Shown in pieces: positions 5,369 through 64,000 of a stretch of DNA of 64,000 bases (positions within the stretch are counted from its first letter, which is position 1; every line of letters begins with the position of its first letter). This stretch comes from Victivallis vadensis. GTDB taxonomy: Bacteria > Verrucomicrobiota > Kiritimatiellia > UBA8416 > CAMCYG01. The stretch spans positions 3,512 to 67,511 of the forward strand of contig CAMCYG010000002.1 in assembly GCA_945883775.1 (NCBI GenBank). The letters are read 5' to 3'. Made by a program: the position numbers and the translations under genes. The notes under the pieces are model-generated. The model made no database searches. It was not told the DNA's origin and worked only from the letters and a program-made list of their open reading frames with translations.

Positions 5369-6873
5369 TTCTTTTCCTCCAGATTCTCTGTCTTGGTAAT
5401 CGCGTAATTCGCAAAGATATCCTTGTCAGCCTTGTTCATTGCGTCCGCATCCATGATTAGGCATTCTTCGTTATTCATAAACTTTATTTTGTGGTAACCA
5501 CTGATAGGATGAGAGAATGCCTCTTTAGCCTGCTGCAAGTTGCCAATTCTCTTGCCATTGATCTCCTCGACAACGCCGTTGACATATTCTTCGTGATATG
5601 AGTTGACCTCATGCGGGAGCCGTTTAATCATGAGCACGAATTCGTCACGTCCGGCATACAGGCTGTCACGTGCTGTAAAAATGGAAATATAAGAAAGAAT
5701 GACTTTCTTTCTGTCTCCCTGGACGCCTGTACCAAGGCTTTCCAGAATCTCCCTGTTGAGCGGTGCGAAGACCAGTCCGCCTTTTATGAAGAAACGAGGC
5801 TTCTGGTCGTACAAGTTCCTGAAAACAAAAGGATTTGATAATTTCTTAAGCGGCACTTTGAACATTTGCCGTTTCCCGTCTCTGACTACATCCAGGGTGA
5901 CGGATTGTCCTACTTGCTTTCGCTCGAAAAGTTCGGAGAACTGGACAGAATAGCCTTCAAGGTTGATGGTGCCGTCATCGTATATCTTGTAACCGTCAAT
6001 GGACAGCACTACATCTTTATCTTTTATCGCGCCGAAGGCGCTTCCGAATGGATTAACATAGCTTACGACTATACCTGTTTCGCCCTCCGGTATGCCTAGG
6101 CTTCTCTTAAGGGCCTTATTTCTGAGTTCGAGGTATTCGATTCCAAACTCGGGATATTCATTATACTCACCGTCCTCGATATCTCTCATGAAATGCTGTA
6201 TCACCGGTAGCGGTATGCCATATCCTATATTCTCGCCTCTGCTAAAGCCTTGAAAAGCAATCCCGACGACCTTACTGCCCATAAAAATGGGGCCACCGCT
6301 ATTGCCTGGATTTATGGCTGCATCGACCTGCATGACCAGATGCTCGTCAACCATGCTGTGAGAATAAACACTGTAGTCCATGCGTGAGACTACGCCCTTA
6401 GTCAAAGATATTCGATCGCCTCCCATGGGATAGCCGATGACTATCACCTCATCATTAAGCTCAGGCATTTTCTCTGCAAGTTCCAGTTCAGCGAGCCCAT
6501 CGTAAAACTCAGGAGCATCGACTTCAATGATTGAGATATCGCAGTCGTGTCCGACATACTTTCGCTTTGCGGGATAACGTTTAGGGTCTCCGTCGCGTTG
6601 CACTTCAATGAACTTGGCATTCGATACCACATGTGCGTTTGTAAGTATCCGCTTGCCTGATATCAGAAAACCTGTGCCATTGCCCTTTCCAAGATGACCG
6701 CTCTGCCATGGAAGCAAATAGTTCTCGCTCTGCACTGTCACATAAATCTTGATGACAGAGGAACGAATCTTGCCGTAGGAGGTGTCTCTTGTAAAAAACG
6801 CAGCCCCTCCCGTTGACAAAGAAAGCAAAACAAAAAGACACAGCATTAAGGTCAGCTTGGATTGCTTATTCAT
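5365..6873 (-). CDS. periplasmic trypsin-like serine protease of the S1C/HtrA-DegP family with a C-terminal PDZ-like region
   Basis: Signal peptide MNKQSKLTLMLCLFVLLSLSTGGAA. Catalytic triad motifs are present: TNAHVV (His), HDCDISII (Asp) and GNSGGPIF (Ser). About 250 aa of C-terminal region is consistent with PDZ domains. Confidence 0.85.
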   Translation of the reverse strand: MNKQSKLTLMLCLFVLLSLSTGGAAFFTRDTSYGKIRSSVIKIYVTVQSENYLLPWQSGHLGKGNGTGFLISGKRILTNAHVVSNAKFIEVQRDGDPKRYPAKRKYVGHDCDISIIEVDAPEFYDGLAELELAEKMPELNDEVIVIGYPMGGDRISLTKGVVSRMDYSVYSHSMVDEHLVMQVDAAINPGNSGGPIFMGSKVVGIAFQGFSRGENIGYGIPLPVIQHFMRDIEDGEYNEYPEFGIEYLELRNKALKRSLGIPEGETGIVVSYVNPFGSAFGAIKDKDVVLSIDGYKIYDDGTINLEGYSVQFSELFERKQVGQSVTLDVVRDGKRQMFKVPLKKLSNPFVFRNLYDQKPRFFIKGGLVFAPLNREILESLGTGVQGDRKKVILSYISIFTARDSLYAGRDEFVLMIKRLPHEVNSYHEEYVNGVVEEINGKRIGNLQQAKEAFSHPISGYHKIKFMNNEECLIMDADAMNKADKDIFANYAITKTENLEEKK

Positions 6874-6884
6874 CCGAATTATTC

Positions 6885-7406
6885 TTAGATCGGAATGCTC
6901 GCGAATATCCCGTATTCGAGATCGCCCGCTTCAAAGTCAGACAGGTCGCTAAAGGACTCGAATGGATAATATGTCATGAGCGTTGTTTCGATGCTGCCAA
7001 ATTTATGTCCGAAACCGACAAATAGCTGATAGTACATATCCGCCCAATCCGATTCGTCATCATTACTGATATAGGGTTTGAGCACACCCACGCCGCCCCT
7101 CCATATTTTATCCTTAAGTATTAGATTGGCTTGAGGAGTCAATGCATAATCCATGTTTTCCATACCTTCTTTCGAGAAGTCGAAAGCGTAATCGAGAGCA
7201 AACTGCAATGCATAAGCATCGCCGGTGTCATGGACTTCATAAGACAGTGCATATGACATGTCCCCATCACCAAAAGGCAAATCGGTGTATATTGAGCTTT
7301 CGGCATGATATCTTACTCCGACTCCCACCATGTCAATGGCTGAAGTTGCCGCGAATACCTGCATGGTTGATAGCGCAAACAAAGCTATAACTAATGTCTT
7401 TTTCAT
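6885..7406 (-). CDS. secreted protein with a signal peptide, possibly a small 8-strand outer-membrane beta-barrel
   Basis: Signal peptide MKKTLVIALFALSTMQVFAATSA. The mature protein has alternating hydrophobic/aromatic strand-like segments (VGVGVRYH, YALSYEV, YALQFALDYAF, MYYQLFVGFGH). A GGGAGG Shine-Dalgarno lies upstream of the ATG. It is the first gene of the operon. Confidence 0.55.
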   Translation of the reverse strand: MKKTLVIALFALSTMQVFAATSAIDMVGVGVRYHAESSIYTDLPFGDGDMSYALSYEVHDTGDAYALQFALDYAFDFSKEGMENMDYALTPQANLILKDKIWRGGVGVLKPYISNDDESDWADMYYQLFVGFGHKFGSIETTLMTYYPFESFSDLSDFEAGDLEYGIFASIPI

Positions 7407-29245: not shown

Positions 29246-29269
29246 TTGGGCTATCGGCTATATTAATCA

Positions 29270-29398
29270 CGTCTTCAGGAACGGGTGAGCAGAAATTGCA
29301 AATCCCGACCGGCGGTAAAGCCCGCGACTCCCTGAGTAACCAGGGACTGATTCCGGTGGAATTCCGGGGCCGACAGTAAAGTCTGGATGGAAGAAGGC
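29270..29398 (+). ncRNA. FMN riboswitch aptamer (RFN element)
   Basis: Conserved RFN blocks are present: AAATCCCGACCGGCGGTAAAGCCCGCGAC, GGTGGAATTCCGG, GCCGACAGTAAAGTCTGGATGGAAGAAGG. The P1 strands are TCTTC and GAAGA. It sits directly upstream of ribBA. Confidence 0.9.
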
Positions 29399-29418
29399 AT
29401 TGTCTGGCTTGTACTTAT

Positions 29419-34355: not shown

Positions 34356-34746
34356 AGTGTGATATTTATCGGTGGAGGGATTGGTCGCTCCGGCTTGCCG
34401 GAGAGGAAAGTCCGGACTCCACAGGGCAGGATGTCCCCGGTTGACCGGGGAGGCTTTCTGGCAATCGGAAAGTACGGATAGTGCCACAGAAAACAGACCG
34501 CCCCGAGAGCAATCGAAGGGTAAGGGTGAAAAGGTGGTGTAAGAGACCACCGGGTCATCAGTGATGATGGTCGCAAGGCAAACCCCTCCGGAGCAAGATC
34601 GAATAGGAAACTTGAGGTGGCCCGCCTCTGGCAGATACGTTAAATCGTGCTGTCGAAGTTTCGGGTAGATCGCAATAGATAAATGACCGACACAGTAAAA
34701 TGTGAACAGAATCCGGCTTATGGTCTCTGCTGATAAATATCACATC
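34356..34746 (+). ncRNA. rnpB: RNase P RNA (bacterial type A)
   Basis: Universally conserved blocks are present: GGAAAGTCCGGACTCCACAGGGCA (P4 5' strand), AGGGTGAAAAGGTGGTGTAAGAGACCACC (P10.1/P11), and ACAGAATCCGGCTTA (P4 3' strand). The 13-bp P1 helix is formed by TGTGATATTTATC (34358-34370) and GATAAATATCACA (34732-34744). The element starts 2 nt after the stop of the upstream gene. Confidence 0.9.
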
Positions 34747-42465: not shown

Positions 42466-43223
42466 TCCGGCTCACCAATAGTGTTTAATGCAGCTATTGC
42501 CGCATTCCGTTCCGCCTCCTGCTTGCTTTTTCCCCGCCCCTGTGCAGATACTGTTCCAGCGGTAACCTCTATCACAAACATCCGCGAATGCGATGGACCG
42601 GCAGAATCTATCACCCGATAAACAGGGGACATCTTGAATACCCTCTGACTATGCTCCTGCAATTTTCCTTTTGGATTATGTGCAGCCAGCTGCTCGTCGA
42701 TGCCGGCAATCTGCTGCTGCATCAACCGGATCAGAAGATTAGCGACCGGCTTCATACCGCCATCCACATAAACAGCCCCTATCACTGATTCAAATACATC
42801 CGCAAGAGTTGACGTCCTTGTCCTGCCATTCGACTTCTCTTCGCCCTTGCCGATGTAAAGCCATTTGCCAAGCTCCAGTTCATTGGCAAATACCGCAAGT
42901 GCCCTGCCACTGGTAAGCATACTCCTGTATGAGGTCAGAGTCCCTTCATCACAAGACCTGTATTTATTATAGATCATCGTCGAAACAGCCATTGATATGA
43001 CCGCATCACCCAGGAACTCCAACCTCTGGTTGTCGACCTTGACACCCTTGCTCTCATAGCGAAAGGATGGATGCGTTATTGCTTCTATCAAGAGCTCCTT
43101 ATTCCCGAAAGAATGCCCCAATTCCCTTTCCAAACAGGAAAGATCCCTGCCATCCCCCTCGCCTCCATTGATCATTTCCGAACATTTATCCTTGATCCTC
43201 TTTATCAGTTTTCTCATCTTCAT
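42462..43223 (-). CDS. rnc: ribonuclease III
   Basis: The RNase III signature ERLEFLGDAV and a C-terminal dsRBD are present. Confidence 0.9.
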   Translation of the reverse strand: MKMRKLIKRIKDKCSEMINGGEGDGRDLSCLERELGHSFGNKELLIEAITHPSFRYESKGVKVDNQRLEFLGDAVISMAVSTMIYNKYRSCDEGTLTSYRSMLTSGRALAVFANELELGKWLYIGKGEEKSNGRTRTSTLADVFESVIGAVYVDGGMKPVANLLIRLMQQQIAGIDEQLAAHNPKGKLQEHSQRVFKMSPVYRVIDSAGPSHSRMFVIEVTAGTVSAQGRGKSKQEAERNAAIAALNTIGEPE

Positions 43224-44110
43224 GCCCTCGGATGGAATTTTTCATGGATTGAGCGTAAGCGGCCCTGGTCTACATGCGTGTATATCTGCGTCGTAGAGAT
43301 ATCTGCATGCCCCAGCATTTCCTGTATGACACGCAGTGGAGCGTCGTTTGCCAGAAGATGGCTCGCAAATGAATGCCTGAGTGTATGAGGTGAGACATCC
43401 TTCGCGATGCCGGCTCGCTTTGCGTAATGTTTGATCAGCTTCCAAATGCCTTTCCGGGATATGCCCTTCTTCCTGTATGTCAGAAAGACATGTCGCATCG
43501 ACGGATCCTGAGAGAATTGCGGTCGCGCTTCCGAAATATAAACCTGTAACTGCTCTTTTGCTTTCCCGCCGAACGGGACTACCCTAACCTTGCTACCCTT
43601 TCCCGTACATCTCAGATAATTGCTATCCATGTGCAGATCGTCAATCTTTAGTCCAGACAACTCGGACACACGTAAGCCCGACGCATACATAAGCTCTATT
43701 ATCGCCCGGTCTCTGATACTGATCTTATCATTGCCAGCTGGCGCCGATATCAAGCGCTCTACTTCTTTAACCGACAGCGTTGACGGCAGGACTTTCCATA
43801 ATTTAGGCGAATCCATTGTTTCGGTGACATTCCGAGACAGCAGACCTTCCTGTACCAGATATTTGAACAGTACCTTGATTGACACGAATTGCCGCGAAAT
43901 AGAATTGGCATTCATCCCCGCATCTTTCTGATGCATTATGAAATCAAGTATATGCTTCCTGGTGATATTGTTCGCCGAACTGATTTTTCTGGACAAGAGA
44001 AAATCCGAGAAACAGATAAGGTCCGACTTATAGGCTGACATCGTATTAGGGCTCAGCCCTCTCTCAAGGGCAAGATAGTCAATGAACTGGTCGATAAGAG
44101 CGTTCATCAA
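43220..44110 (-). CDS. xerD: site-specific tyrosine recombinase XerD/XerC
   Basis: An N-terminal SAM-like domain and catalytic residues R...HxxR...Y (HTLRHSFASHLL, TTQIYTH) are present. The 296-aa length fits XerD. Confidence 0.85.
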   Translation of the reverse strand: MMNALIDQFIDYLALERGLSPNTMSAYKSDLICFSDFLLSRKISSANNITRKHILDFIMHQKDAGMNANSISRQFVSIKVLFKYLVQEGLLSRNVTETMDSPKLWKVLPSTLSVKEVERLISAPAGNDKISIRDRAIIELMYASGLRVSELSGLKIDDLHMDSNYLRCTGKGSKVRVVPFGGKAKEQLQVYISEARPQFSQDPSMRHVFLTYRKKGISRKGIWKLIKHYAKRAGIAKDVSPHTLRHSFASHLLANDAPLRVIQEMLGHADISTTQIYTHVDQGRLRSIHEKFHPRA

Positions 44111-44598: not shown

Positions 44599-45282
44599 TT
44601 ATTGTACAGGAATATTGGGTTTATCCTGCGGATCTTCAACGATCATCTTCGCCAATTCAGCTTCTATCAGCTTTACCACCTTATCCTCCCGTGGTCCTGT
44701 CCGGCTTCCGAATCGTCCGACGATATTACCTTCAGCTGAAATAATGAATTTATTGAAGTTCCAACTTATTTTTCCGCTATGTTCAGAGTTGGAAGTCTTG
44801 GACGTCAAATATTTATACAGCGGATCCTGGTCGTCGCCAGATACTGATATCTTCGAGAACATCGGAAATGTAACATTATAGTTTAGAGTGCAGAAACGTT
44901 TTATGTCTGAATTTGAGCCAGGCTCCTGAAAAAGAAAATTATTGGCTGGAAAGCCCAATACCACAAAATTTCTGTCCTTATAGTCCTGATACAATTTCTC
45001 CAGATCCGCATACTGCCCCGTAAATCCGCATTTACTGGCAACATTGACAATCATAATGACTTTCCCTGCGTACTCAGCCAGAGAGACATCCTTACCGTCA
45101 ATGTCTTTGACGGTAAATGCAAATATGCCCTTGGCAGGCTGTGATACTTTCGGCATAGCATTAGTATCCGCAGCTGTTAAGGTATTCGTGGCATTGGAAG
45201 CATCAGTGTCAGTTGAATTAGACACAACCTGATTAATTGAAACGGCGTTAAGGACGGTCGGAGTATCATTTGTTGAATTCAT
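44599..45282 (-). CDS. glutathione peroxidase family protein with an N/S/T-rich N-terminal extension; start possibly at 45156
   Basis: The GPx core is present (FTVKDIDGKDVSLAEYAGKVIMIVNVASKCGFT, then WNFNKF). The first ~42 codons (MNSTNDTPTVLNAVSINQVVSNSTDTDASNATNT...) are low-complexity and lack an obvious signal peptide. The internal ATG at 45156 would give a canonical-length Gpx. Confidence 0.8.
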   Translation of the reverse strand: MNSTNDTPTVLNAVSINQVVSNSTDTDASNATNTLTAADTNAMPKVSQPAKGIFAFTVKDIDGKDVSLAEYAGKVIMIVNVASKCGFTGQYADLEKLYQDYKDRNFVVLGFPANNFLFQEPGSNSDIKRFCTLNYNVTFPMFSKISVSGDDQDPLYKYLTSKTSNSEHSGKISWNFNKFIISAEGNIVGRFGSRTGPREDKVVKLIEAELAKMIVEDPQDKPNIPVQ

Positions 45283-45410
45283 AGTTACATATTACCAGCG
45301 TTTTTCTTGATCGCAAGAAAGCTTTTGCTCCCCTATTTTTGCACAGGCTGAAACATTGAGCGACAATATCGAATGATGAGGCGATCTGAACCTTAAACGC
45401 ATATATTCTT

Positions 45411-45478
45411 ACTGTAGGAGCCGCAACCCTTTGCGGCGATCGAGAAGAATCGCCGATGCGGGGATCGGCTCCTACAAG
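45411..45478. repeat. structured ~62-nt palindromic repeat (REP/BIME-like), copy 1
   Basis: gtaggagccgcaaccctttgcggcgatcgagaagaatcgccgatgcggggatcggctcctac has a 10-bp outer stem and a nested GGCGAT/ATCGCC stem. A second copy at 54915-54976 differs by compensatory changes. Confidence 0.75.
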
Positions 45479-45738: not shown

Positions 45739-46425
45739 TTACGCGGTCATCTCCCTATCTGCGAATACCGACTTCAACGCCGCAACAGCCTTCTCGTTAT
45801 TCAGCAGACCTATTGCCCCATCAAGGTACTTGATCACTTCGGCGGGGATCCCTGAAATAGCAGAACACTGCTTGCGAACTGACACCAGCCGTAACGCCAT
45901 ATTCTTCATCAACTCACCGGCAGTCTTTGAACTTTTGCTCACCTTCGCAACCTCACTGCTCTTCAGTTCACCTGTCAGTGCTTTACTCTGTAGTTCTTCC
46001 AGTTTCTTCCGTTTCTGCGGCGAAACATTCTTCTCGGCAAGTTCACGCTCAATGGTTATCAATCCAGCAACATCATACAGATCAGGAATGAACCCCTTCG
46101 GCTTTGGCTGGAGCCATTCCGGATGGTTCTTAGTCACCCAGTCATACACCTGGATATATCTATATAAAGATGCCCTGCCCAACTGCAGACGCTTCTCTGC
46201 ATAATCCTCGATGTCGGGATGACCAAGCGAAACGAACATCTTCTTCTCGCGCACCTGCGATAGAAGTTTACCAACACGCAAATATGACAGCTGGGCATTC
46301 TTGAGCGTCCCTTTCAAAAGCCAGGTGACCTGCAATGCTTCCTGTACCTCAATTTGTTTCGCTGACTTTTTTACTGTTTTAGATTTATTTGCAGTCTTTT
46401 TAACCGACGTTGTCTTCGCACTCAT
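45739..46425 (-). CDS. hypothetical protein with a Lys-rich N-terminus and no recognisable domain (228 aa)
   Basis: Start chosen at the internal ATG 46425, preceded by a strong AAGGAG Shine-Dalgarno (spacing 5). The tracked ORF extends to 46632, but that extension is Arg/Gly-rich junk lying over repeat element B. The N-terminus MSAKTTSVKKTANKSKTVKKSAK is histone-H1-like and basic. Confidence 0.6.
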   Translation of the reverse strand: MSAKTTSVKKTANKSKTVKKSAKQIEVQEALQVTWLLKGTLKNAQLSYLRVGKLLSQVREKKMFVSLGHPDIEDYAEKRLQLGRASLYRYIQVYDWVTKNHPEWLQPKPKGFIPDLYDVAGLITIERELAEKNVSPQKRKKLEELQSKALTGELKSSEVAKVSKSSKTAGELMKNMALRLVSVRKQCSAISGIPAEVIKYLDGAIGLLNNEKAVAALKSVFADREMTA

Positions 46426-46525
46426 GCAGTCTCCTTGTGGGATTGATTCATTAACCGATCTTATATAATGCGCCCCATTCTTAGCATTCCTTCCGCCAAT
46501 TACGGAATTGCTTCCTGGAAGTTTC

Positions 46526-46605
46526 CCGTAGGGGCGCTGCTCGCCGGCGCCTGCCTTCGCGAAAGAGCTACGGCGTGGCGTGTCCCGCGTTCGATGATCA
46601 ACGTC
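46526..46605. repeat. degenerate repeat related to the palindromic element (element B)
   Basis: It contains cgtaggggcgctgctcgccggcgcc...ggcgtggcgtgtcccg...cgttcgatgatcaacg, which resembles element A at 45496-45585. It lies in the leader region of the 45739-46425 gene. Confidence 0.4.
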
Positions 46606-46682
46606 TTTAAGATATTCCTGAATTCCGCTCATGCTCCCTTTCCAGACCCAATTTAATCAGGGTTATATCAGCAATATGAGCA

Positions 46683-51776: not shown

Positions 51777-53039
51777 ATGAGTTCAGATTTAACACTTGCG
51801 CCCCCTCGGGGTATGAGGGATTTCTATCCCGAGGATATGGCTATACGTAACCATATCTTCCAGGTTTGGCATAATTCAGCCCGCCTTCACGGATTTCTAA
51901 ACTACGACTCCTGCGTTGTAGAAAACCTGTCCCTCCTTAAAAGAAAAGCCGGTGAAGAAATCACCGAGCAGATATACAGTTTCATTGATAAGAGCAATCG
52001 CGAGCTTGCACTGCGCCCTGAGATGACACCTACTCTGGCCCGGATGCTTATTGCCAGACAGAACTCAATGCAATTCCCGGCAAAATGGTACACAATCGCA
52101 CAGTGCTTCAGGTACGAGCGCATGTCGAAAGGCCGGAAACGGGAGCATTTCCAATGGAACCTCGATATTGCAGGCGAACCGTCGACCTCCGCTGAAGCAG
52201 AAATAATAGCTGCCGCGATTACAGCAATGAGAGCTCTAGGCCTCACGGCCGGCGATATAAAAGTAAGAATTAATAGTCGCGCTTTGATGGCCGAGCTCCT
52301 TATCAAGCATGGAATACAGCAGGAACATACCGCATCCGTCTTCATGGCTATAGACAAGTACGGGAAAATTCCTGAGCCAGAGATTGTTAAGATGCTGACA
52401 GCGGCATGTCTTTCTGAAGAAGGCATCAAGGCAGTTTTTGAGATCATGAAGATCAATAGCATTGACGCCGCTAAGTCTGCAGCCGGTGATGAATCACCTG
52501 CCATGCGGGCTATTATTGAAATATGGGGAGCCATAAGCACATACGGACTAACTGATTTCATTGAATTCGATATGTCAGTCGTCCGGGGCCTTGGTTACTA
52601 CACAGGGATTGTCTTTGAATGTTACGACATCAAGAAAGAGCACCGCGCCATCTTTGGCGGGGGCCGCTACGACAACCTGATATCCGATTTAGGCGGCAAT
52701 AAGATCCCATGCGTCGGCATGGGGTTTGGTGATGTCGTTATAGCTGAGTTACTTGCAGAAAAGGGACTGTTACCGACAGGTTCAGCCCCTGCTCTTGTGG
52801 CTGTCGGATGCATGGACAAGCCTTCCATGTCTTTGGCGATCGAGATCGCGGTCATGTTCAGGAATAATGGGGAATCCGTTGATCTGGCACTGGCACCTGA
52901 AAAACCCAAGAATTTCTTCTCGCGTTGCAGTTCTGCCGGCTTCGATCGGGCTGTCTATATCGGACCCGATGATGTCAAATCCCGTAAGATCAGAATCAAA
53001 GACCTCAAGACGCGACAGGAGACGGAGCTGTCTCTGTAG
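51777..53039 (+). CDS. hisS: histidine--tRNA ligase
   Basis: [12 protein letters not shown], class II motif 2 ([16 protein letters not shown]) and motif 3 (GGGRYDNL) are present. Confidence 0.9.
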
Positions 53040-54825
53040 GCAATATCTTCGGTTTTTCTGGAAGATTGATCTTGATGTGAAGTTCTCGCAGTTGCTTCAA
53101 CGTAACGTCGCCAGGAGCACCCATAAGAAGATCCTGTGCCTTCTGGTTCATTGGGAAAGCAATTACTTCCCTAATATTATCCACATTTGCCAATAGCATT
53201 ACTATTCTGTCGATGCCAGGGGCAATGCCACCGTGTGGCGGCGCACCCAGCTTAAAAGCGTTGATAAGCGCCGGGAACTTCCCGTCTACATCTTCCTGCT
53301 TATACCCGGCAAGATCAAATGCCTTGTACATGATTTCGGGCTTATGATTTCTGATTGCCCCGCTGCCGACCTCGCATCCATTACAGACAACATCATACTG
53401 AAAAGCCTTGATATCAACCGGATTCATCGTATTCAACGCCTCAATACCGCCCTGCGGCATTGAAAACGGATTATGAGAGAATATGACAGTCTGTGATTCC
53501 TCATCAAATTCGTACATCGGGAAGTCGACTATCCAGCAGAACCGATAGACATCTTTCTCGAGAATGTCCAGATCACGGCCCAGCTTTATACGTATATCGC
53601 CTGATACTCTATTCACCAGTTTGACGTTGTCGCACAGCAGGAACACCACATCCCCATCCTGTAAAGCGCATTGAGCGGCTATGCTAGCAAGCTCGTCCTT
53701 GGAAAGAAACTTGGCTATAGGGCCCTTTACCTCGCCATTCTCCCAAACAAGATAAGCCAAACCCTTGGCACCTAAAGAAATCGCATACTCAACCAGTTTA
53801 TCAAAGAAACTACGGGACTTGGACGCAATCTGTCTGACCGGAATTGCTCTTACCACGGCCCCCTTCTCCACCAGCGATTTAAAAGCCTTGAAGCCGGACG
53901 TACGGAATATTTCCGTAGCATCAGACATGATTATCGGGTTGCGCAAATCTGGCTTATCAGAGCCGTACATCAGCATTGAATCTGAATACTTAATCCGCTT
54001 GAATGGTATTCCATCAACCTTCCAAGAGCCGAATTTTGTAAATATCTGATGCAAAACAGATTCAACCACCTTAAAAATGTCATCTGGTTCGACAAACGAC
54101 ATCTCGATATCAAGCTGACTGTGCTCACCCGGCGACCTGTCCGCCCTCGCATCTTCATCCCGGAAACAGGATGCAATTTGGAAATATTTATCGAATCCGG
54201 CTAGCATGAGTAATTGCTTAAACTGCTGGGGTGATTGCGGAAGAGCATAGAACTTGCCGGGGTGTACCCTGCTCGGCACAAGATAATCACGTGCACCCTC
54301 TGGTGAACTACTGGTTAATATAGGCGTCTGGAACTCATTAAAGCCGTTCTGATCTATCATTATCTTCCTGATTTCCGAGATCACACGGGTACGCAACATG
54401 ATGTTGCTATGCAATTTCTCTCTACGCAGATCGAGGAACCTGTATTTCAAGCGCAACTCCTCAGAAGTATCATCATCGCCGGATACTTGGAATGGTATTT
54501 GTTCAGCCACACTATCAAAAATGATTTCCTGGGCCACAATCTCTATCTCACCGGTCTTGACTTCAGGGTTTATTGTGTCAGGGGTCCTGACTTCCACCAT
54601 ACCCGTAACGGTTATTACGGATTCAAGCTTAAGTTTTTGGCATTCCTCGAAATAGGATTGATCGGGGCGTATGACAATCTGCGTCATGCCGTAATGATCA
54701 CGCAGATCAAAGAAAAGAAGACTGCCGTGATCCCGTTTCCTGAAGACCCAGCCGGATAGTTTCACCAGTTTGCCAGCGTCAGCCGTGCGTAATTCGTCGC
54801 AGTTATGTGTTCTGTATTTATGCAT
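53005..54825 (-). CDS. aspS: aspartate--tRNA ligase
   Basis: An N-terminal OB-fold anticodon-binding domain ([19 protein letters not shown]), class II motifs and the C-terminal [14 protein letters not shown]...VIAFP block are present. Its 3' end overlaps the convergent hisS by 35 nt. Confidence 0.9.
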
Positions 54826-54910
54826 AAGAAATTGAGAAAATAGCAGGAATTGGGGAAATGTAAATAAGAAATGAACATATGGAGAGTACGAACTTCATTA
54901 GATTTATTCC

Positions 54911-54980
54911 GACTGTAGGAGTCGCAACCCTTTGCGACGATCGTGAATAATCGTCGATCTGGGGATCGACTCCTACAATA
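54911..54980. repeat. structured ~62-nt palindromic repeat (REP/BIME-like), copy 2
   Basis: gtaggagtcgcaaccctttgcgacgatcgtgaataatcgtcgatctggggatcgactcctac lies in the aspS upstream intergenic region. It matches copy 1 with six substitutions that preserve both stems. Confidence 0.75.
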
Positions 54981-55026: not shown

Positions 55027-55980
55027 TCAGGGCGTTATGGTAACTTTAGCACCTAACGGAAGTATATCGAACACCTCTTCAACATCGGCATTATGCATTC
55101 TTATACAGCCGGCACTGTCTGCTGTTCCTATTGAGGCGTCGTTCCATGTGCCATGAATCCCATAGCCTTTAACTGACGGGGTGCTGCCAGTAGCCTTTAT
55201 GCTCATCCATCTGGTTCCAAGTATGTTCTCTTTATCACCAAACGGCAGCATCTTGTCACCTCTCCACCAAGGTGGCTCAACTATCTTATCATTGACGGCA
55301 AATGTACCTTCAGGAGTCTTTCCCATCTTGCCGGTACAGACCCTGTAGCGCTTGCAAAACAAGCCGTTTATATATAACACCATATCGTTGGCAGATTTAC
55401 TGCAGACCAGACTGAATACTGCTTTTGTCAAAACCAGAGTATCGCCAGCATGCAGAACCTTTGCCTCAGAAAAACCATTTGCTCTGCGAATAAGATTTAC
55501 TGTAGTGCCATGACTTTTGGCAATCTTTTCCAGACTGTCGCCCGGCCTCACAGAATATGACATCTTCTCAGAGGTCATAATTGGCGAAAATAGTACGGCT
55601 ATCGAGAGCTTTCCCATTTCGAATTCAGCCATTTCAACAATTCGGGAATCATTGGTAGCCGTTATTATGGAGCGATATTTCTGAAAAGCCTCTTCATGTT
55701 TATTGGCAGTTTCAAGATCCTTGGCCTCTTTCAATATAGCCAAGCCTGCTGTCTGTGCTGTTAGATTTGATGAAGAATTATCAACTGTGACCGGCACACT
55801 GTTGGTTAACGCCTGCGCAGGCGGCTCGCCCTGAGTCGAAGGCACATCACGCCGATCGCGTATGATCCTGTATGCTTGATAAGATCCAGCACAGACCAGG
55901 ATAACGATTAAAAGCAATACCCAAGGCTTCCTGCTGGGGGATTTAAAATCATCCTGAGACACGGGATTATCAAGAAACAT
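55027..55980 (-). CDS. L,D-transpeptidase (YkuD domain) with a LysM peptidoglycan-binding domain
   Basis: A LysM domain (YSVRPGDSLEKIAKSHGTTVNLIRRANG) and YkuD catalytic motifs (HGT...SAGCIRM) are present. The N-terminus has a TM/signal anchor. Confidence 0.85.
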   Translation of the reverse strand: MFLDNPVSQDDFKSPSRKPWVLLLIVILVCAGSYQAYRIIRDRRDVPSTQGEPPAQALTNSVPVTVDNSSSNLTAQTAGLAILKEAKDLETANKHEEAFQKYRSIITATNDSRIVEMAEFEMGKLSIAVLFSPIMTSEKMSYSVRPGDSLEKIAKSHGTTVNLIRRANGFSEAKVLHAGDTLVLTKAVFSLVCSKSANDMVLYINGLFCKRYRVCTGKMGKTPEGTFAVNDKIVEPPWWRGDKMLPFGDKENILGTRWMSIKATGSTPSVKGYGIHGTWNDASIGTADSAGCIRMHNADVEEVFDILPLGAKVTITP

Positions 55981-57043: not shown

Positions 57044-60000
57044 CTACTGATTGGCAATACCATATGTTATTCGATAATAGACTGTTGAAGGTGGTGCTGG
57101 CGCGATATTTACGTCATCCACTACCGCTGCATTACCACCATTCACTCCGTCACTTGTATATTGGTCAATTGGAACCCAAGTGATAAGATCCGAACTGGTC
57201 TCGACTGTGAAACGTATTGGCACCGCGCCAAGATTGGAATAAGTCATCCAGTTGACATTGATATTCCCGCTACCGTCAATTGTAAGCCCGGATATAGCAA
57301 TCTGGCTGACAGGCCCAGCAACATTCGGATTACTTCCCGCAGCAATCTCTGCAAGATCATTTGCACCACCAATTGAAATATCACCATCAGTGTCGACTGA
57401 ATTATATGATGTCCCAAAAGCATACTCCACATAATTCAGTATTCCATCGCCATCCGTGTCTGCAGAACCCGATGTCGCCAACGAACCAGCATAATTCTGA
57501 TATTCCCACCCATCAGGCACGTTGTCATTATCAGTATCACGATCGCTTATCACTATGTTTACACCGGTCACGCTCTCGGTGGTCAATAAATTCACCACCC
57601 TGAGCGAGTACTCAATGGCATACTCATACCTGATTCCCTCTGAAACATCACGAGCAACACCTAAAGGCTCCCATGGATCGGCAATGCTATTCCCGTTCAC
57701 ATCGATAAAAGCCTGCACATAATATATATCATGCTGAAGGCCATTGATAGTATAAGCACCAGCGGTGCTGAGTTTCTTCATGCCATCCACACCCGTGCGC
57801 AGATCAGGTTTGTTATAGGCCATAACATATATATTACCAGTTGCTTTTCCGAAATATGAAACTGTGCCAGACAAAGCTGGCGCGCCCACATACTGCTGAG
57901 GTGGATTAGTAATCGCCAGCGAGAAACTGCCATATCCCGACCAGCTGCCATAGGAAGCGTTATTATGCGGCCTTATACGCCACTGATAATTTCCATTGGT
58001 AAACGAACCGCCACTTCCAAACAATCCATATGTTGTAGTCGCGTCAACAGGCATAGACTGCTTGAATAAACCTGTCTGGAATCTGTAGGGCGCCGCAAAC
58101 ATTTTTGTGTAATTGACTCCGTTGGCTGAAGTGATCTCTATCTCATATCTCGGCTCGTTTGTGGCGCTGGACCATTCAAATATGTGTTTCTGGGATGTAA
58201 TCATATCGCCATTGATCGGACGGACAAGTACCGGGGTCCCAGAAGAAGACATCGGGACAAAGAAGCGATCCTTCTGCAGCATAGTTCCGTTCTCATAATC
58301 AAATATCTGCCACTCGTAACTGCCCTGAGGAAGACCATAATAATAGTTATTGCCGTCCAAATATGTGGCAGTCTGATAGTCCGGCTTAAAGAAGTAGTTC
58401 CTATCCCTTAGCGTCTTCTGCAATATCACAGGACTGTTGTCAATATCCAATCTGGTCAAACGCACAAACACGTTTGTAGGCGTGGCTGAAGCATTGACCC
58501 AAGTAAATGCTTTGAACCATGGTATAGCGGACTCTTCTGTCAGATAATAATTCAAGTTGGCAGTATCCCCATATACACAGTCCAAATCAGCCACGAAATA
58601 CGGGTCTCCCGGTTCATACGTATCTGCTGTCGAATCCCAGTTGGCATCGGAGGTGTTTTCTTCCACACCTTCTTTCAGATACGAAAGGAAATAAGTCTTA
58701 TTGTTCTCATCCGGCCAGGCCGAAGCTGTTATATGCCATGCCCTTGCTCTGGCATCATTCGTACTAGTGCCTACATCACGCAGATTATCATCATATGTCG
58801 AGACGCTGAATGTGTTGACCCAGAGAGAACCATTGAGATTCCCTTCATAATAGGCGCTCCCATTAATCATATTCTCAGGATAGTCAGCGACTGTTGGATT
58901 CCCTCCGTTCAAATATTCCCGCAGATTATCTGACCCGTCGTTATCAGGGTCCTCATTAGCATCATATCTCAATCTGCTCAAGATAGGTGCAAACTGAGCT
59001 TCCCACCAGTCAGGCATACCGTCCCCATCGTCGAACTTTGCGCCATAGGGCACGCCGGAATTACCGTAACTGTCAAAATAGTCATTCTTGCCGTCTCCGT
59101 CAGTATCAGCGCGCATCGGATCCAGATATATCCCCCCGAACGAGTCGACAAATGCCATATACTCATACAGATTGACCAAGCCGTCCTTATCAGGATCGCC
59201 CCAGGCACCGTTGCTGCCGGTTGCATCATTCGCATCGAGTCCGGCCGCAATTTCCCAATCATCCGGCAGGCCATCACCGTCAGTATCAAACGGTTCAGTT
59301 CCCTTCCCTAGATTATCCCACAACTCAATATCTTCATCCGCTACAGCCTGCCGCAACGGAAGCAAATCATCCATCACCGCTGCGGTATACCGCGAATATA
59401 TCAAATCGATCAGATCATAAGCAAAGGGATGGTCTTCGTACCCGGATTGAATAGAAGTTCTATAGGTTAATCCGTACGGATTACTGGCATTCGGGAACTC
59501 GTTTGTTATGTTAATATTAGCAGTGACTCTATTTGTCGTTGTCACCCCATTGGTTCCGGTAGTGGTGGTTGTCGTCGTTATTGTCCCGATAGGAACAACC
59601 CACGGCCAATTTATGGACAGCGAGTCAAGCACAGGATTTGTCAGCGGCATATGCGATGCGGTGTTATCTATCCATGGAACATAGTTATAATCATTATAAA
59701 CAGTCGACCGGTCCGGAGCCGTTCTCCAGAACTCATTACCGGCATAACTGCCGTCATTCGGCCTACCGCTGACAAGATTGAAGCCATCCGGTGAGACCGA
59801 CGAGTGGTCCGGATCAGGCAGATCATCGAAAGAATAATGGTACAACAGCATCGGAGCATAATTATCCAGAATATCACCCTGCGCATTGAGCGTAACGATA
59901 TCCGTACGTTTCATGCGCCTCATCATATTATCCTGAATGATCTGTGCACTGACAATGCCATCCCAGATACGTACCTCATCTATCCATCCTTTAAAGAACG

Positions 60001-63000
60001 AACTTAAACCCGGATTCCCAAGTGCTGGCCCGGCATTAGGGCCTGTCCAAACGTTAGCGCCGTTTATCATGCCCATCGGGCTCGAATCAGCTGCGCCCAC
60101 CACAATCGGTCCGCGCATCACATATCCAAAATTTGCCTGATTCGTAGTGATCATCTGCCCACCACCGACCCAACCATTGCAGGGGATTTCGGCTGATGGC
60201 GTCGACTGCTGAAGCTCACCATTGATGTAAAGCTCCAGTCTCTTTGTCAAACCATTATAGGAAGCAGCCAGATGCACCCACGCATTGGGAGCCAATACCC
60301 CACCTACAGCCCGTGCATTGACATTCAGCGTGTCAAAACCGGCTCCTGTGTATTCTGTGAACGGCACACCTGTCGCGTCTATACCAAGCCTGAAATTGTA
60401 ACGCAGACTTGTAGGCCAGCCCATCGGATTCCCGTTTTCGACCAGCAAAGGACGTTCCACTATTATCTGATCCGCACCTGAAACAGGATTTTCAGGCCTG
60501 ACCCATGCCTCAACCATCCAGTTTCTCAACACATCCTGCTCCGAAGGGAAATACGCCGCGACGGTCCTGGCCGCAGCATTGCCGTTAAGATATAGCGCCC
60601 TTCTCTTTAGCGGGAGCTCCGCGTCAAGCGGATCTGTATAGCCCGGGCTTGCCGAATCAGTTATTTCCGCCCGGTCTGCAATATTGTCATTATCAGTATC
60701 ATACCCCTCATTGACCTCAAAATCGAACATATAACTTGGCGCAAACCCATACGCCAAGTCCACATCATCCCAGTACCACGGTAAAGTCCCAGTCGAGTAA
60801 TACAGATTCACAAAGCTCTGCTGGTAACTGGTATCGGTCACCCATATCGGCGTCGGATCGGTATGGTATCTCTGCGGATTTATCGAACCCGGCTGTAATG
60901 ACTCGTCTATATTGGGCAAGCCATCCTGATCTGAATCACTGAACTGATGCCCTATAACGGCCGGTGCCAGTCTGACGTCGAACGTAGGCCAATCGCTAAA
61001 GGAGAATGGCACATTAAGGCCCCAACCCACGATCCAAACCCCTTTATAGATATCATACCCGCCAAGTATAGGATTCAGGCAATGGAACACCTCATAATAG
61101 TCGTCCATGTTGTCCATATCTGAGTCGTCATTGACCGGTGCCGAGCCAGCGAATTCCTCTAAAGGATAGTGAAAATCAGGAAGATCAGCGAGAAGAGCAG
61201 GTGTTGTCATGGCAAAAACATAAGGAATCGTACCCAATGACGCCTGCCAGAGATCCGCATCACCATAATAATGCCAATCCCACTCATAGGGGGTACCAGT
61301 CGCGGAATTGATAGGATCATATCCGAAAAGCCCCAATCCCGCCGCCCATGAGCCATACTGCCATGACGGCACAAAACATGTCAGATATTCCTGATAATTC
61401 TGAAGTCCATCCTGATCGTAATCATATCGCAAGGGAGCTTTTTGAAAATAGTTACTATTTGTGTAGTTCCCATTTGCAAACAAATTTGTACCCGAGTCAT
61501 CAAAAGTCCCATCCATACCGTTACGACCGGAAGCGCTGTTGAGATTTGTCGTCGCTGTATTCTGGTAGACAAACTCCCAATTATCAGGTATGTGGTCGCC
61601 GTCTGTGTCAACGCTAGTGGGATTCAACCCACCGCCCTCATAACAATGCATCGCGCGCGCGCCGCCGGGATAAATCTGTGAAAATTCTGCGCCATCCATG
61701 ACCTGGTCCCCATCAGTGTCGAGATTATATGGATCTGTCGGAAAGTGTTTATTCAACCAGGTTTCATATTCGGTTGGAATGCTGTTTGTAACAGGAACCC
61801 AAGCAGTGCCATCAAAGATCGAATTTGTTGACTCACTCATGTAAGCATTAAAGAACTCACCAGCGTTATCAAGCCCGTCCCCGTCCACGTCAGAGCCACC
61901 AGGCCCTACATATAACTCCCAGCCGTCAAACGCTCCATCGCCGTCAGTATCCGGATTACGAGGATGAGTGAGGTTAAGAAATTCGTCTAAAGTCGTATAG
62001 TCTCTCGTGTTCTCATTGTGTGTCGGCGTAAGACTCCACATATACTCCCAAGGCTCATAAGTTGCATTTGCAACTGCGGTCCTGGGATCAAAACCATACG
62101 CGACATACACAGCATTATGCTCATTACCAATACCGTCATCAGCCATAAAGTCTCTATCGGGATTCGACGCAGCGTCTGCGGTTGGCGGGGTTGTTACTAG
62201 TAGCCACGGATCGAAACCGAAGCTGATCTCCCACTCATCGGGCAAACCGTCAGCATCTATATCTACGTAATTCGGATTAGATGTCGCACCTCGCTGGGCA
62301 CGTACGCTTACACTATACTCATCCAAATTAACATAAGGCAGAGGTGGGGTTCCAGCCTGAGCAGTAATATCATCATAGTAAAAGTCGCCATCAGGATTAC
62401 CATTCGGTCCATTGTCTATATCTACATCGCCATCATCCAATGGCGAAGGATGAGCACCCGCAGCCAAACCTGCCATTTGCGATGCGATCTCAAAGCTATG
62501 CTCCCAACCATCCGGCATTCCATCAATATCAGTGTCAGCAAGCAACGGATCTGTTGTCCCAAATGTCCCGGCTGCATAAGGCGGGATATTAGTTCCAACA
62601 AGTATTCTCTGATATTCCTCAAGATTAGTGAAGGGAGTGACCGTTTTTCCGCTGAATGTAACATTCTCAGCCAAGGCCAGATAGTCGAAATCGCCGTCCG
62701 GATTGCCCGTCGCGCCCATATCGCCCTTGTTGTCGAGCGGGTCAAGAGTGTAGGTGATCTCCCATTCATCAGGCATCCCGTCCCCATCGGTATCAGGATC
62801 ATTGGGATCAGTTGAAAGCAACATGATTACCAGGAACTGTCCCAAAGGAATATTTTCTACGCCGGCATTTTCGACAAACTGCTGATATTCCCTTAAATTA
62901 GTGAAGTTGCCGACAGTAAAACCTGTTAATTTATCAAACAACAGATCGCCGTCCGGGTTTCCAGAAGCGCCATCAACTCCCGCCGCGCTAGTTGGATTCA

Positions 63001-64000
63001 GCCCGAAATACGCTTCCCAGCCGTCGTACATTCCATCGGCATCGGTATCAGGATCATTCGGTCTCGTTGACGGTTGTCCATTATAACCATTGAACTCCTG
63101 CCTATTCGTCAATCCGTCCTCGTCAGGATCTATTCCGGCATCAGCTACATCTTTTGGATCAAGCAAATTATCGATTTCATACCCATCGTCCATTCCGTCA
63201 CCGTCGGTATCAGTGTTCTGCGGATTAGTTGCATCTGTATCCAAACCGATGCCATCTGGACGCTGACCATCCTTCCCCAAATACTCAAGGAAGTTGGACA
63301 GCCCATCAACATCAGCATCAGTAAATTGTCCATGCAGCCCAGCGCTCGTTGCTGGGGAAAGCCCATATAAAGCCTCCCACGCATCATTCATTTGATCACC
63401 ATCTGTATCGTAAGCTTTGGGATTTGTCTGCGTGAACCTGTTCGTAGAATAAATACCGCCAGTATTGCCGTTCAGCGGGCCAAGAAACTCTTCAATGTTG
63501 GAAAGGCCGTCAGCATCTGCATCTCCGGCTGCGCCATCCTGTCCATCCGCACTCAAGGGATTCAAACCGTATTTAACTTCAAAGTCATCCCGCATTCCAT
63601 CATCATCGGTGTCAGATTTCTGCGGATCAGTTGCGTCCGACGTGCCGATACCATTTCCGATCGGAACGGCGGTATCACGACCCCTATACTCCTGCATATT
63701 GGTCAGGTTATCAGCGTCGACATTACCCGTTTGTCCGTCGTTCCCGGTGGAAACCATAGGATTAAGCCCATAATTCGCCTCCCAGCCGTCATTCATTCCA
63801 TCGCCGTCCGAATCGGGATTGTCGCGATCCGTACGCAAGAAATTCGCAACAAGATTGATTCCAGATGGGTTTCCGTTAATTGGACCATTCCATTCCTGAA
63901 GATTTGTTAGTCCGTCGCCATCTGAATCTAACGCACCATCAGCTCCGGGATAAGGACCGGTTGTATCAATAAAGTTGGCAGTAACATTAATCTGATTACC
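57044..64000 (-). CDS. giant secreted/surface protein (>2,300 aa; N-terminus beyond the window) with ~20 thrombospondin-type-3-like calcium-binding repeats and a LamG/concanavalin-A-like domain
   Basis: A single open frame runs from 57044 to the window end. The frame continues upstream of the TTG the track used at 63838 (…DSDGDGLTNLQEWNGPINGNP… reads through with no stop). DxDxDG[ML]xDxWE motifs recur, each followed by G-x-[DN]-P spacers and [LF][ST]N[LF]xE[YF] motifs. A LamG-like jelly-roll block is present (ALYLNGNAAARTVAAYFPS...NWMVEAWVRPE...WVHLAASYNGLTKRLELYINGEL). The C-terminal ~450 aa are beta-rich and Ig/FN3-like. Confidence 0.85.
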   Translation of the reverse strand, partial: GNQINVTANFIDTTGPYPGADGALDSDGDGLTNLQEWNGPINGNPSGINLVANFLRTDRDNPDSDGDGMNDGWEANYGLNPMVSTGNDGQTGNVDADNLTNMQEYRGRDTAVPIGNGIGTSDATDPQKSDTDDDGMRDDFEVKYGLNPLSADGQDGAAGDADADGLSNIEEFLGPLNGNTGGIYSTNRFTQTNPKAYDTDGDQMNDAWEALYGLSPATSAGLHGQFTDADVDGLSNFLEYLGKDGQRPDGIGLDTDATNPQNTDTDGDGMDDGYEIDNLLDPKDVADAGIDPDEDGLTNRQEFNGYNGQPSTRPNDPDTDADGMYDGWEAYFGLNPTSAAGVDGASGNPDGDLLFDKLTGFTVGNFTNLREYQQFVENAGVENIPLGQFLVIMLLSTDPNDPDTDGDGMPDEWEITYTLDPLDNKGDMGATGNPDGDFDYLALAENVTFSGKTVTPFTNLEEYQRILVGTNIPPYAAGTFGTTDPLLADTDIDGMPDGWEHSFEIASQMAGLAAGAHPSPLDDGDVDIDNGPNGNPDGDFYYDDITAQAGTPPLPYVNLDEYSVSVRAQRGATSNPNYVDIDADGLPDEWEISFGFDPWLLVTTPPTADAASNPDRDFMADDGIGNEHNAVYVAYGFDPRTAVANATYEPWEYMWSLTPTHNENTRDYTTLDEFLNLTHPRNPDTDGDGAFDGWELYVGPGGSDVDGDGLDNAGEFFNAYMSESTNSIFDGTAWVPVTNSIPTEYETWLNKHFPTDPYNLDTDGDQVMDGAEFSQIYPGGARAMHCYEGGGLNPTSVDTDGDHIPDNWEFVYQNTATTNLNSASGRNGMDGTFDDSGTNLFANGNYTNSNYFQKAPLRYDYDQDGLQNYQEYLTCFVPSWQYGSWAAGLGLFGYDPINSATGTPYEWDWHYYGDADLWQASLGTIPYVFAMTTPALLADLPDFHYPLEEFAGSAPVNDDSDMDNMDDYYEVFHCLNPILGGYDIYKGVWIVGWGLNVPFSFSDWPTFDVRLAPAVIGHQFSDSDQDGLPNIDESLQPGSINPQRYHTDPTPIWVTDTSYQQSFVNLYYSTGTLPWYWDDVDLAYGFAPSYMFDFEVNEGYDTDNDNIADRAEITDSASPGYTDPLDAELPLKRRALYLNGNAAARTVAAYFPSEQDVLRNWMVEAWVRPENPVSGADQIIVERPLLVENGNPMGWPTSLRYNFRLGIDATGVPFTEYTGAGFDTLNVNARAVGGVLAPNAWVHLAASYNGLTKRLELYINGELQQSTPSAEIPCNGWVGGGQMITTNQANFGYVMRGPIVVGAADSSPMGMINGANVWTGPNAGPALGNPGLSSFFKGWIDEVRIWDGIVSAQIIQDNMMRRMKRTDIVTLNAQGDILDNYAPMLLYHYSFDDLPDPDHSSVSPDGFNLVSGRPNDGSYAGNEFWRTAPDRSTVYNDYNYVPWIDNTASHMPLTNPVLDSLSINWPWVVPIGTITTTTTTTGTNGVTTTNRVTANINITNEFPNASNPYGLTYRTSIQSGYEDHPFAYDLIDLIYSRYTAAVMDDLLPLRQAVADEDIELWDNLGKGTEPFDTDGDGLPDDWEIAAGLDANDATGSNGAWGDPDKDGLVNLYEYMAFVDSFGGIYLDPMRADTDGDGKNDYFDSYGNSGVPYGAKFDDGDGMPDWWEAQFAPILSRLRYDANEDPDNDGSDNLREYLNGGNPTVADYPENMINGSAYYEGNLNGSLWVNTFSVSTYDDNLRDVGTSTNDARARAWHITASAWPDENNKTYFLSYLKEGVEENTSDANWDSTADTYEPGDPYFVADLDCVYGDTANLNYYLTEESAIPWFKAFTWVNASATPTNVFVRLTRLDIDNSPVILQKTLRDRNYFFKPDYQTATYLDGNNYYYGLPQGSYEWQIFDYENGTMLQKDRFFVPMSSSGTPVLVRPINGDMITSQKHIFEWSSATNEPRYEIEITSANGVNYTKMFAAPYRFQTGLFKQSMPVDATTTYGLFGSGGSFTNGNYQWRIRPHNNASYGSWSGYGSFSLAITNPPQQYVGAPALSGTVSYFGKATGNIYVMAYNKPDLRTGVDGMKKLSTAGAYTINGLQHDIYYVQAFIDVNGNSIADPWEPLGVARDVSEGIRYEYAIEYSLRVVNLLTTESVTGVNIVISDRDTDNDNVPDGWEYQNYAGSLATSGSADTDGDGILNYVEYAFGTSYNSVDTDGDISIGGANDLAEIAAGSNPNVAGPVSQIAISGLTIDGSGNINVNWMTYSNLGAVPIRFTVETSSDLITWVPIDQYTSDGVNGGNAAVVDDVNIAPAPPSTVYYRITYGIANQ

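Follow-up and report, generated by a model that had tools for sequence, protein, structure and literature searches.

The locus which we discuss here raises a simple question: why is a palindromic element of 62 nt found twice in it, with differences between the two copies which leave the stems intact? The elements belong to the window, by which we mean the whole stretch of 64,000 nt which was analysed. A sequence-only reading had placed them at positions 45414-45475 (copy 1) and 54915-54976 (copy 2); these coordinates are borne out, in both cases on the + strand. The same reading had compared them with REP/BIME-type or small MITE-like elements and had proposed that they are under selection for structure, in RNA or in cruciform DNA. 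We find that the two copies are very likely REPINs: BIME-like dimers of GTAG-class REPs with their heads outward (HH dimers), which would come from a RAYT-associated family of PVC bacteria.

Each copy consists of two inverted REP units of 27 nt, with the GTAG heads outward and 8 nt between them. All the arms have the same plan when they are read on their own strand: GTAGGA, a stem, a C-rich loop, the returning stem and GAT. The GTAGGA head is present in the four units of the window (4/4), with a stem of 6-7 bp and a loop of 4-6 nt. In copy 1 the left unit is GTAGGA-GCCGCAA-CCCT-TTGCGGC-GAT (45414-45440, + strand) and the right unit is GTAGGA-GCCGAT-CCCCGC-ATCGGC-GAT (45449-45475, - strand); they are separated by the spacer CGAGAAGA (45441-45448). 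In copy 2 the left unit is GTAGGA-GTCGCAA-CCCT-TTGCGAC-GAT (54915-54941, + strand) and the right unit GTAGGA-GTCGATC-CCCA-GATCGAC-GAT (54950-54976, - strand), on the two sides of the spacer CGTGAATA (54942-54949). With R1, the covariance model described below, the left and right units score 46.0 bits (E 3e-7) and 39.3 bits (E 6e-6) in copy 1, and 43.7 and 40.6 bits in copy 2. The second stem pair is C:G in both arms of copy 1 and T:A in both arms of copy 2: GTCG...CGAC has replaced GCCG...CGGC in the two arms. The outermost 10 nt of each copy are perfect inverted repeats.

Six differences between the copies had been counted; there are actually eight in the 62 positions, at element positions 8, 23, 30, 34, 40, 45, 46 and 55. 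Only four of them are paired (8, 23, 40 and 55, with changes C>T, G>A, C>T and G>A); of the others, 30 and 34 belong to the apical 8-nt spacer and 45 and 46 to the right-arm loop. The paired changes which had been quoted are real: gagCcg/cgGctc becomes gagTcg/cgActc in the outer stem and gGcgat/atcgCc becomes gAcgat/atcgTc in the inner stem. The pairings are intact in both copies, with no stem pair broken. Furthermore, the changed positions are complementary in two different folds: as two local hairpins (8:23 and 40:55) and as the long hairpin of the doublet, which has 20 pairs (8:55 and 23:40). When eight substitutions were placed at random in a Monte Carlo simulation, 0.45% of the trials gave two or more compensated pairs in the long fold, and 0.005% gave them in both folds at once. 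The paired substitutions are hence a real, non-random pattern. Each strand of each copy folds with an energy of -35 to -41 kcal/mol, with z values from -6.6 to -7.8 when compared with shuffled sequences.

A 22-nt probe taken from the element has two matches in the window, which are the two copies, and none is expected from 100 shuffles. The similarity between the copies extends 13 nt to the 5' side of the palindrome; further out the flanks are unrelated. This A+T-rich flank is ATATATTCTTACT in copy 1 (45401-45413, + strand) and ATTTATTCCGACT in copy 2 (54902-54914, + strand), identical in 10 of the 13 positions. It may belong to the element, as an extension on one side only, or reflect a preference for A+T-rich insertion sites. 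The sequence ...ATTT also precedes HH dimers in three of the loci described below (L130, L147 and L148).

The window lies on an ENA metagenome contig of 83.8 kb (ERZ27280308 k141_255051), with a G+C content of about 46%. Its AspS protein has at most 71% identity with any other entry in the protein collection, and the named relatives (about 70% identity) come from Kiritimatiellae and Lentisphaerae MAGs. Judging from these relatives and from one named RAYT, which belongs to a Lentisphaerae MAG, the host appears to be an uncultured Lentisphaerae/Kiritimatiellae-like bacterium. Both copies are intergenic, as had been noticed, and they lie between genes on the - strand. Copy 1 precedes the first ATG of a glutathione-peroxidase (gpx) ORF (44599-45282, -) by 132 nt and lies 264 nt 3' of the stop of an ORF of 297 aa (45739-46632, -). 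It had been described as lying after the gpx-like gene; as this gene is on the - strand, the element is on its 5' side in the sense of transcription. Copy 2 is indeed upstream of aspS (53005-54825, -), 90 nt 5' of it; on the other side, the 3' end of a LysM/YkuD L,D-transpeptidase gene (55027-55980, -) lies 51 nt away.

In about 76 kb of the source contig there are four REP units, i.e. the two doublets, both intergenic. No further copy was detected in these 76 kb, L122 and L123 included, either with a fuzzy regular expression or with R1 with filters off; in the window itself R1, also with filters off, detects no units besides the four known ones. A tblastn search for a RAYT gene in the window and in about 12 kb of further contig (L122, L123) gave no match, either with the RAYT of locus L135, which we will discuss below, or with the sequence of E. 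coli YafM.

The family is found in other contigs. A first pattern, GTAGGAGNCGN{6,14}CGNCGATCG, was too degenerate in the genome_contigs scan: it gave 120 single chance matches, mostly in high-G+C genomes, none of them related by blastn. The scan of viral contigs gave one chance match within a coding region with 66% G+C, and blastn of the 78-nt element against the plasmid collection gave no match. The JGI metagenome contigs were scanned with a tighter pattern, which matches either arm, and 30 loci were found. There are 14 matches on nine contigs of assembly Ga0154562 and seven matches in Ga0209417. This assembly comes from a relative of the window organism, with a ProRS which is 66% identical to that of the window. 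The left unit of copy 1, GTAGGAGCCGCAACCCTTTGCGGCGAT, is found with exact 27/27 identity in seven loci (L127, L129, L135, L137, L142, L153 and L154), and the T:A left unit of copy 2 appears as an exact 27-mer four times in Ga0154562_101 (L138, L151). Both variants of the left arm recur exactly in Ga0154562: C:G and T:A therefore coexist in that genome.

In the relatives the units are found as singlets, as dimers with the heads inward (TT) and as dimers with the heads outward (HH). HH dimers of 61-73 nt, homologous to the element of the window, are present in L130, L147, L148, L155, L159 and L166. Their two arms are identical in L159, differ only in the loop in the window and in L147, and have unrelated stems in L166. 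From these comparisons it follows that what is conserved is the single-REP hairpin together with the GTAGGA head, which is unpaired; this conservation does not extend to the long hairpin of 62 nt, as is apparent from the unrelated stems in the two arms of L166.

We collected by hand 23 distinct units of 27 nt, from which the covariance model R1 was built. All of them (23/23) share the head GTAGGAG and the tail CGA, six of their seven stem pairs have double-sided changes, and 96.9% of the cells are paired, in comparison with 73% in shuffled units and 20-53% with slid partners. R1 finds 62 units in 282 kb of related loci; in its alignment 95.7% of the cells are paired vs 69% in shuffles, again with double-sided changes at six of the seven stem pairs. 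For both sets, none of 500 shuffles reaches the observed pairing score. These pairing values should be read taking into account that the scan pattern fixed stem pairs 3 and 4 and partly imposed complementarity at pairs 5 and 6, and that the aligned units were also chosen for having a hairpin. The bias of the scan pattern does not touch the units beside RAYT genes or the second arms of dimers, and it is in these that the stems vary most widely: GCCCGAC, GCCCTGC, GCCCGGC, GCGGCAA and GCGCCA. Building a covariance model from all copies had been proposed as a check by the sequence-only reading: across 33 distinct units the stems do covary, with double-sided changes at six of the seven pairs. The same reading would have been refuted by the existence of these two copies alone or by additional copies without covariation; for the family this does not hold, since related genomes contain more copies, which covary. 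The compensatory changes in the window may be considered, by analogy, as an instance of the tolerance of a hairpin-reading TnpA-REP for complementary changes in the stem.

The association with RAYT genes is found in the relatives. In a contig of 1.2 kb (L135) three pattern matches surround an ORF (197-715) which scores 87.9 bits on the NCBIfam model NF047646 'REP-associated tyrosine transposase' (an equivalog with a cut-off of 80). Its only PDB match is 4ER8, the TnpA-REP of E. coli (E 1.7e-5). It has the HUH motif (DHWHAL) and the tyrosine motif YIxxNPV, and it lies just below the gathering score of Pfam Y1_Tnp (21.2 vs 23 bits). This RAYT has REPs on both sides; the one immediately downstream is the exact 27-mer of the left arm in the window. 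Protein searches gave about 50 close relatives, and 956 at E <=1e-15. At JGI several relatives are named 'REP element-mobilizing transposase RayT', and one belongs, according to NCBI, to a Lentisphaerae MAG.

The loci of five RAYT relatives (P0123, P0126, P0127, P0146 and P0148, the last one in the Lentisphaerae MAG GCA_016182435.1) were found through the protein alone, independently of the DNA pattern. GTAGGAG-hairpin-GAT units flank all of them (5/5), as HH dimers in most cases. In the 13-kb Lentisphaerae locus L166 the seven matches of the covariance model (7/7) abut the RAYT gene. A RAYT gene flanked by the same REPs, i.e. a REPtron, is thus present in L135, L155-L162, L163 and L166, and absent in the window. 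The orthologues P0123, P0126 and P0127 share the same slot (L155-L162), between xseA and ymdB (the latter downstream of rny, the gene for RNase Y); the RAYTs of L135, L163 and L166 are located outside this slot. The shared slot fits a domesticated RAYT gene which is vertically inherited, and it agrees with the description of RAYTs as single-copy and housekeeping-like (PMC8266576).

The family unit is (T)GTAGGA, a 7-bp stem with a C-rich loop of 3-6 nt and GAT. REP units are non-autonomous DNA elements, whose hairpin and 5' GTAG would be bound as single-stranded DNA, in a strand-specific way, by a RAYT (TnpA-REP, an HUH/Y1 enzyme). In the case of TnpA-REP this behaviour has been described: it binds the folded single-stranded REP strand-specifically, and the determinants are GTAG and the hairpin (PMC8266576). 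The RAYT gene is normally present once in a genome, with the same REPs on either side of it. The protein would cleave at a nearby pyrimidine-T dinucleotide beside the hairpin and then rejoin the ends. The cleavage dinucleotide of the E. coli TnpA-REP is CT (PMC8266576); CT is found directly 5' of the GTAG of the left arm in both copies of the window, and in 45 of 59 units the base before GTAG is T, which is circumstantial evidence. Units or doublets would be copied in this way into intergenic DNA without target-site duplication. REP transposition by RAYTs has never been demonstrated in vivo, model organisms included (PMC8266576). Because the protein would read the hairpin, the positions of the stem would be free to change as long as they stay complementary, and sub-families with alternative complementary residues in the stem would therefore arise. 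To judge from their sequences, the C:G and T:A copies of the window are probably two such sub-family variants. A RAYT would exist, or would have existed, in the window organism and have mobilised both of them; the copies could be relics. Any effect on the flanking transcripts would be secondary: the hairpins may play a part where the upstream transcripts end, at their 3' side, which is not required in order to read the elements as REPs.

HH dimers of GTAG-class REPs were described by Di Nocera et al. 2013 (PMC3733652); they are also named REPINs (Bertels & Rainey 2011, as cited in PMC3733652). The GTAG class is defined by a palindrome of 20-50 nt with a conserved unpaired tetranucleotide on its 5' side, which is what we find in the four units of the window (4/4). 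The window doublets also have the features of an HH dimer: inverted REPs with a short spacer, which form one long hairpin. They share with the published REPs the unpaired 5' GTAG head and a short loop (the published stems have 6-9 bp), and with the published dimers the inverted units with GTAG outside, the arms which differ in the loop and the alternative complementary residues in the stem. They also lie between genes transcribed in the same direction. The published GTAG families likewise have sub-families with complementary stems, HH and TT homo- and heterodimers, and sites between unidirectional genes (PMC3733652). When (T)GTAGGAG-N-hairpin-CGAT is set beside the 24 published GTAG consensus families, the comparison is one of descriptions only. 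There are also differences: the spacer has 8 nt, whereas most published dimers have 20-100 nt, and the host is an uncultured Lentisphaerae/Kiritimatiellae-like bacterium with 46% G+C. In the PVC superphylum such REPs have already been reported in Opitutus terrae and Rhodopirellula baltica (PMC3733652). The BIMEs of E. coli are also comparable.

The loci of the relatives resemble REPtrons (E. coli TnpA-REP, 4ER8; Corneloup et al. 2021, PMC8266576) by an HUH/Y1 protein of about 166-172 aa with REPs on both sides, and by REPs which are short perfect palindromes with GTAG, like the 'group 3' REPs. They differ from the E. coli REPtron by a RAYT which is only 27% identical to E. coli TnpA-REP, and the window itself, unlike a REPtron, has no RAYT. 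A further likeness is found with the ends of IS200/IS605 and the palindrome-associated elements derived from them, which have sub-terminal single-stranded hairpins recognised by an HUH/Y1 enzyme, a guide-like tetranucleotide 5' of the hairpin and no target-site duplication. In contrast with IS200/IS605, there is no transposase between the hairpins of our elements, the units are of 27 nt, symmetric and dispersed in trans, and the proteins match a RAYT-specific model, not merely the generic Y1_Tnp.

The same doublets could instead be mainly structured RNAs acting in cis (a stabiliser of 3' ends, a hairpin for Rho-independent or Rho-dependent termination or for attenuation) or a small RNA, with selection on the long hairpin; the repeat family in DNA would then be incidental. 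We consider this improbable. Both copies do lie between genes of the same direction, 51 and 264 nt past the upstream stop codon, with hairpins which are very stable on both strands, and the four paired changes (4/4) preserve the long hairpin too. It is also true that REPs elsewhere have been reported to stabilise mRNA and to affect termination (PMC3733652, PMC8266576), and an RNA function would be compatible with a REP origin, as an exaptation. However, the long hairpin is not the conserved unit: the arms of the relatives' doublets may have unrelated stems, and many members of the family are singlets or TT dimers, which are unable to form it. Recognition of single-stranded DNA by a protein accounts for the strict conservation of the GTAGGA head and the GAT tail, which are unpaired; an RNA helix does not account for it. 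There is no U-tract after the full hairpin on either strand of either copy, and Rfam 15 gives no match over the elements, either at the gathering score in the whole window or at E <=1 in the two intergenic regions. The sequence-only reading was thus right in that the stems are kept; since the conserved unit is the hairpin of a single REP, a function at the RNA level is unnecessary to explain the compensation.

Two other readings concern the origin of the copies. A classical MITE would be an internally deleted IS with terminal inverted repeats, mobilised by a DDE transposase, and the elements have something of it: they are small, palindromic, intergenic and repeated, and their outer 10 nt are perfect inverted repeats. 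The MITE-like alternative had been left open together with REP/BIME, but no target-site duplication is present at either copy (the flanks are ...CTTACT/element/AAGGGA... in copy 1 and ...CCGACT/element/AATACA... in copy 2), the ends bear GTAG/CTAC, the signature of REPs, and the units, which are also found as singlets, flank genes for HUH/Y1 proteins (RAYT), not for DDE transposases. A MITE is for these reasons very improbable. That we face a single local duplication, or a chance palindrome without any family, is hardly credible. Only two copies are found in about 76 kb of the source contig, as such an event would have it, but their flanks are unrelated beyond 13 nt, no match is expected by chance, the pattern of substitutions is non-random (P about 5e-5), and exact arms recur in many unrelated contigs and also beside RAYT genes. 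The REP/BIME half of the earlier comparison stands, with its stems under selection: the arms are GTAG-headed hairpins, the REP unit flanks RAYT genes elsewhere and the stems covary in 33 units.

Within the REP reading one feature deserves a comment. The same variant is present in both arms of each copy of the window, which selection at the level of the REP does not explain by itself; there are two copies only. The four segments at element positions 7-10, 21-24, 38-41 and 53-56 are all GCCG/CGGC and may pair either 1:4 and 2:3 or 1:2 and 3:4. The same change from GCCG to GTCG distinguishes the copies in all four segments (4/4). Selection could act on both conformations of the REPIN, which would turn the doublet into a unit at the level of the replicator. 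Alternatively a directed process, for example deamination at methylated GCCG followed by hairpin-templated correction, could give a concerted switching of sub-families. An identical REP unit (27/27) is common to genomes with 46% and 56-63% G+C, which would mean either an unusually ancient and tightly co-evolving REP-RAYT partnership in the PVC bacteria or its horizontal spread. That the doublet is a four-segment switch of either kind, in a partnership with such a history, appears unlikely to us.

Paired base changes are typical of the REP/REPIN class, and the elements are ordinary members of a known group of junk-like bacterial repeats. A conspicuous structured repeat is explained as REP/REPIN DNA rather than as a new RNA, which is mainly of value for annotation; the compensatory substitutions are therefore not evidence for a novel riboregulator. 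A documented REP-RAYT family is added for a poorly sampled lineage, the Lentisphaerae/Kiritimatiellae-like PVC bacteria. Its hallmarks are the head (T)GTAGGAG, a variable stem of 7 bp and the GAT tail, with some RAYT orthologues between ymdB and xseA. The model R1 may be used for masking or counting these elements in related MAGs, and the family could serve for the population genetics of REPINs outside Proteobacteria.

Some REP units are part of larger structures. In L125, L126, L131, L140 and L150 (Ga0154562 / Ga0209417), as well as in L138 and L151, longer composite repeats have the unit at their 5' end. One type runs on into ...GTTTTCCAATNNTTGGAAAA; another runs on into the perfect palindrome ATGATCACACTTTGCAAAGTGTGATCAT, which is found four times on one contig. 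In three other loci a heads-inward REP dimer is adjoined by ...ATATGTGTATAAGAGACAG... (L137 ~5430-5490, L142 ~7177-7240 and L153 ~1760-1817), a sequence which is seen on several contigs of two assemblies. It is 18/19 identical to the Tn5 mosaic end / Nextera adapter, and could be either a natural IS end or an artefact of assembly derived from the adapter.

Two candidate structures were tried for the elements and rejected. As intrinsic terminators they lack the U-tract: there is one marginal match in the inner arm of copy 1, within the expectation from shuffles, and none in copy 2. A tRNA-like cloverleaf, formed by the outer stem and the local hairpins, was dropped because each of its local hairpins is just one of the REP units.

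The window has other features of its own. The only Rfam matches at gathering level in it are a class A RNase P RNA (34369-34737, +, 221 bits) and an FMN riboswitch (29267-29402, +, 89 bits). At 1.3 kb from copy 1 there is a gene for a XerC/D-type tyrosine recombinase (43220-44110, -), with Phage_integrase and SAM-like N-terminal domains and no sign of a link to the element. The convergent genes hisS (51777-53039, +) and aspS overlap by 35 nt at their 3' ends (53005-53039). A giant ORF of 2613 aa (57044-64000, -) runs past the end of the window (L123 2115-9956) without Pfam matches; numerous diverged repeats, each of about 160-260 nt (repeat families D1-D4), lie inside it, and upstream of it come first an ORF of 147 aa, then another of over 2151 aa. 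Near the RAYT of the Lentisphaerae MAG locus L166 there is a protein of 2702 aa, of the Laminin_G_3/TSP3 type.
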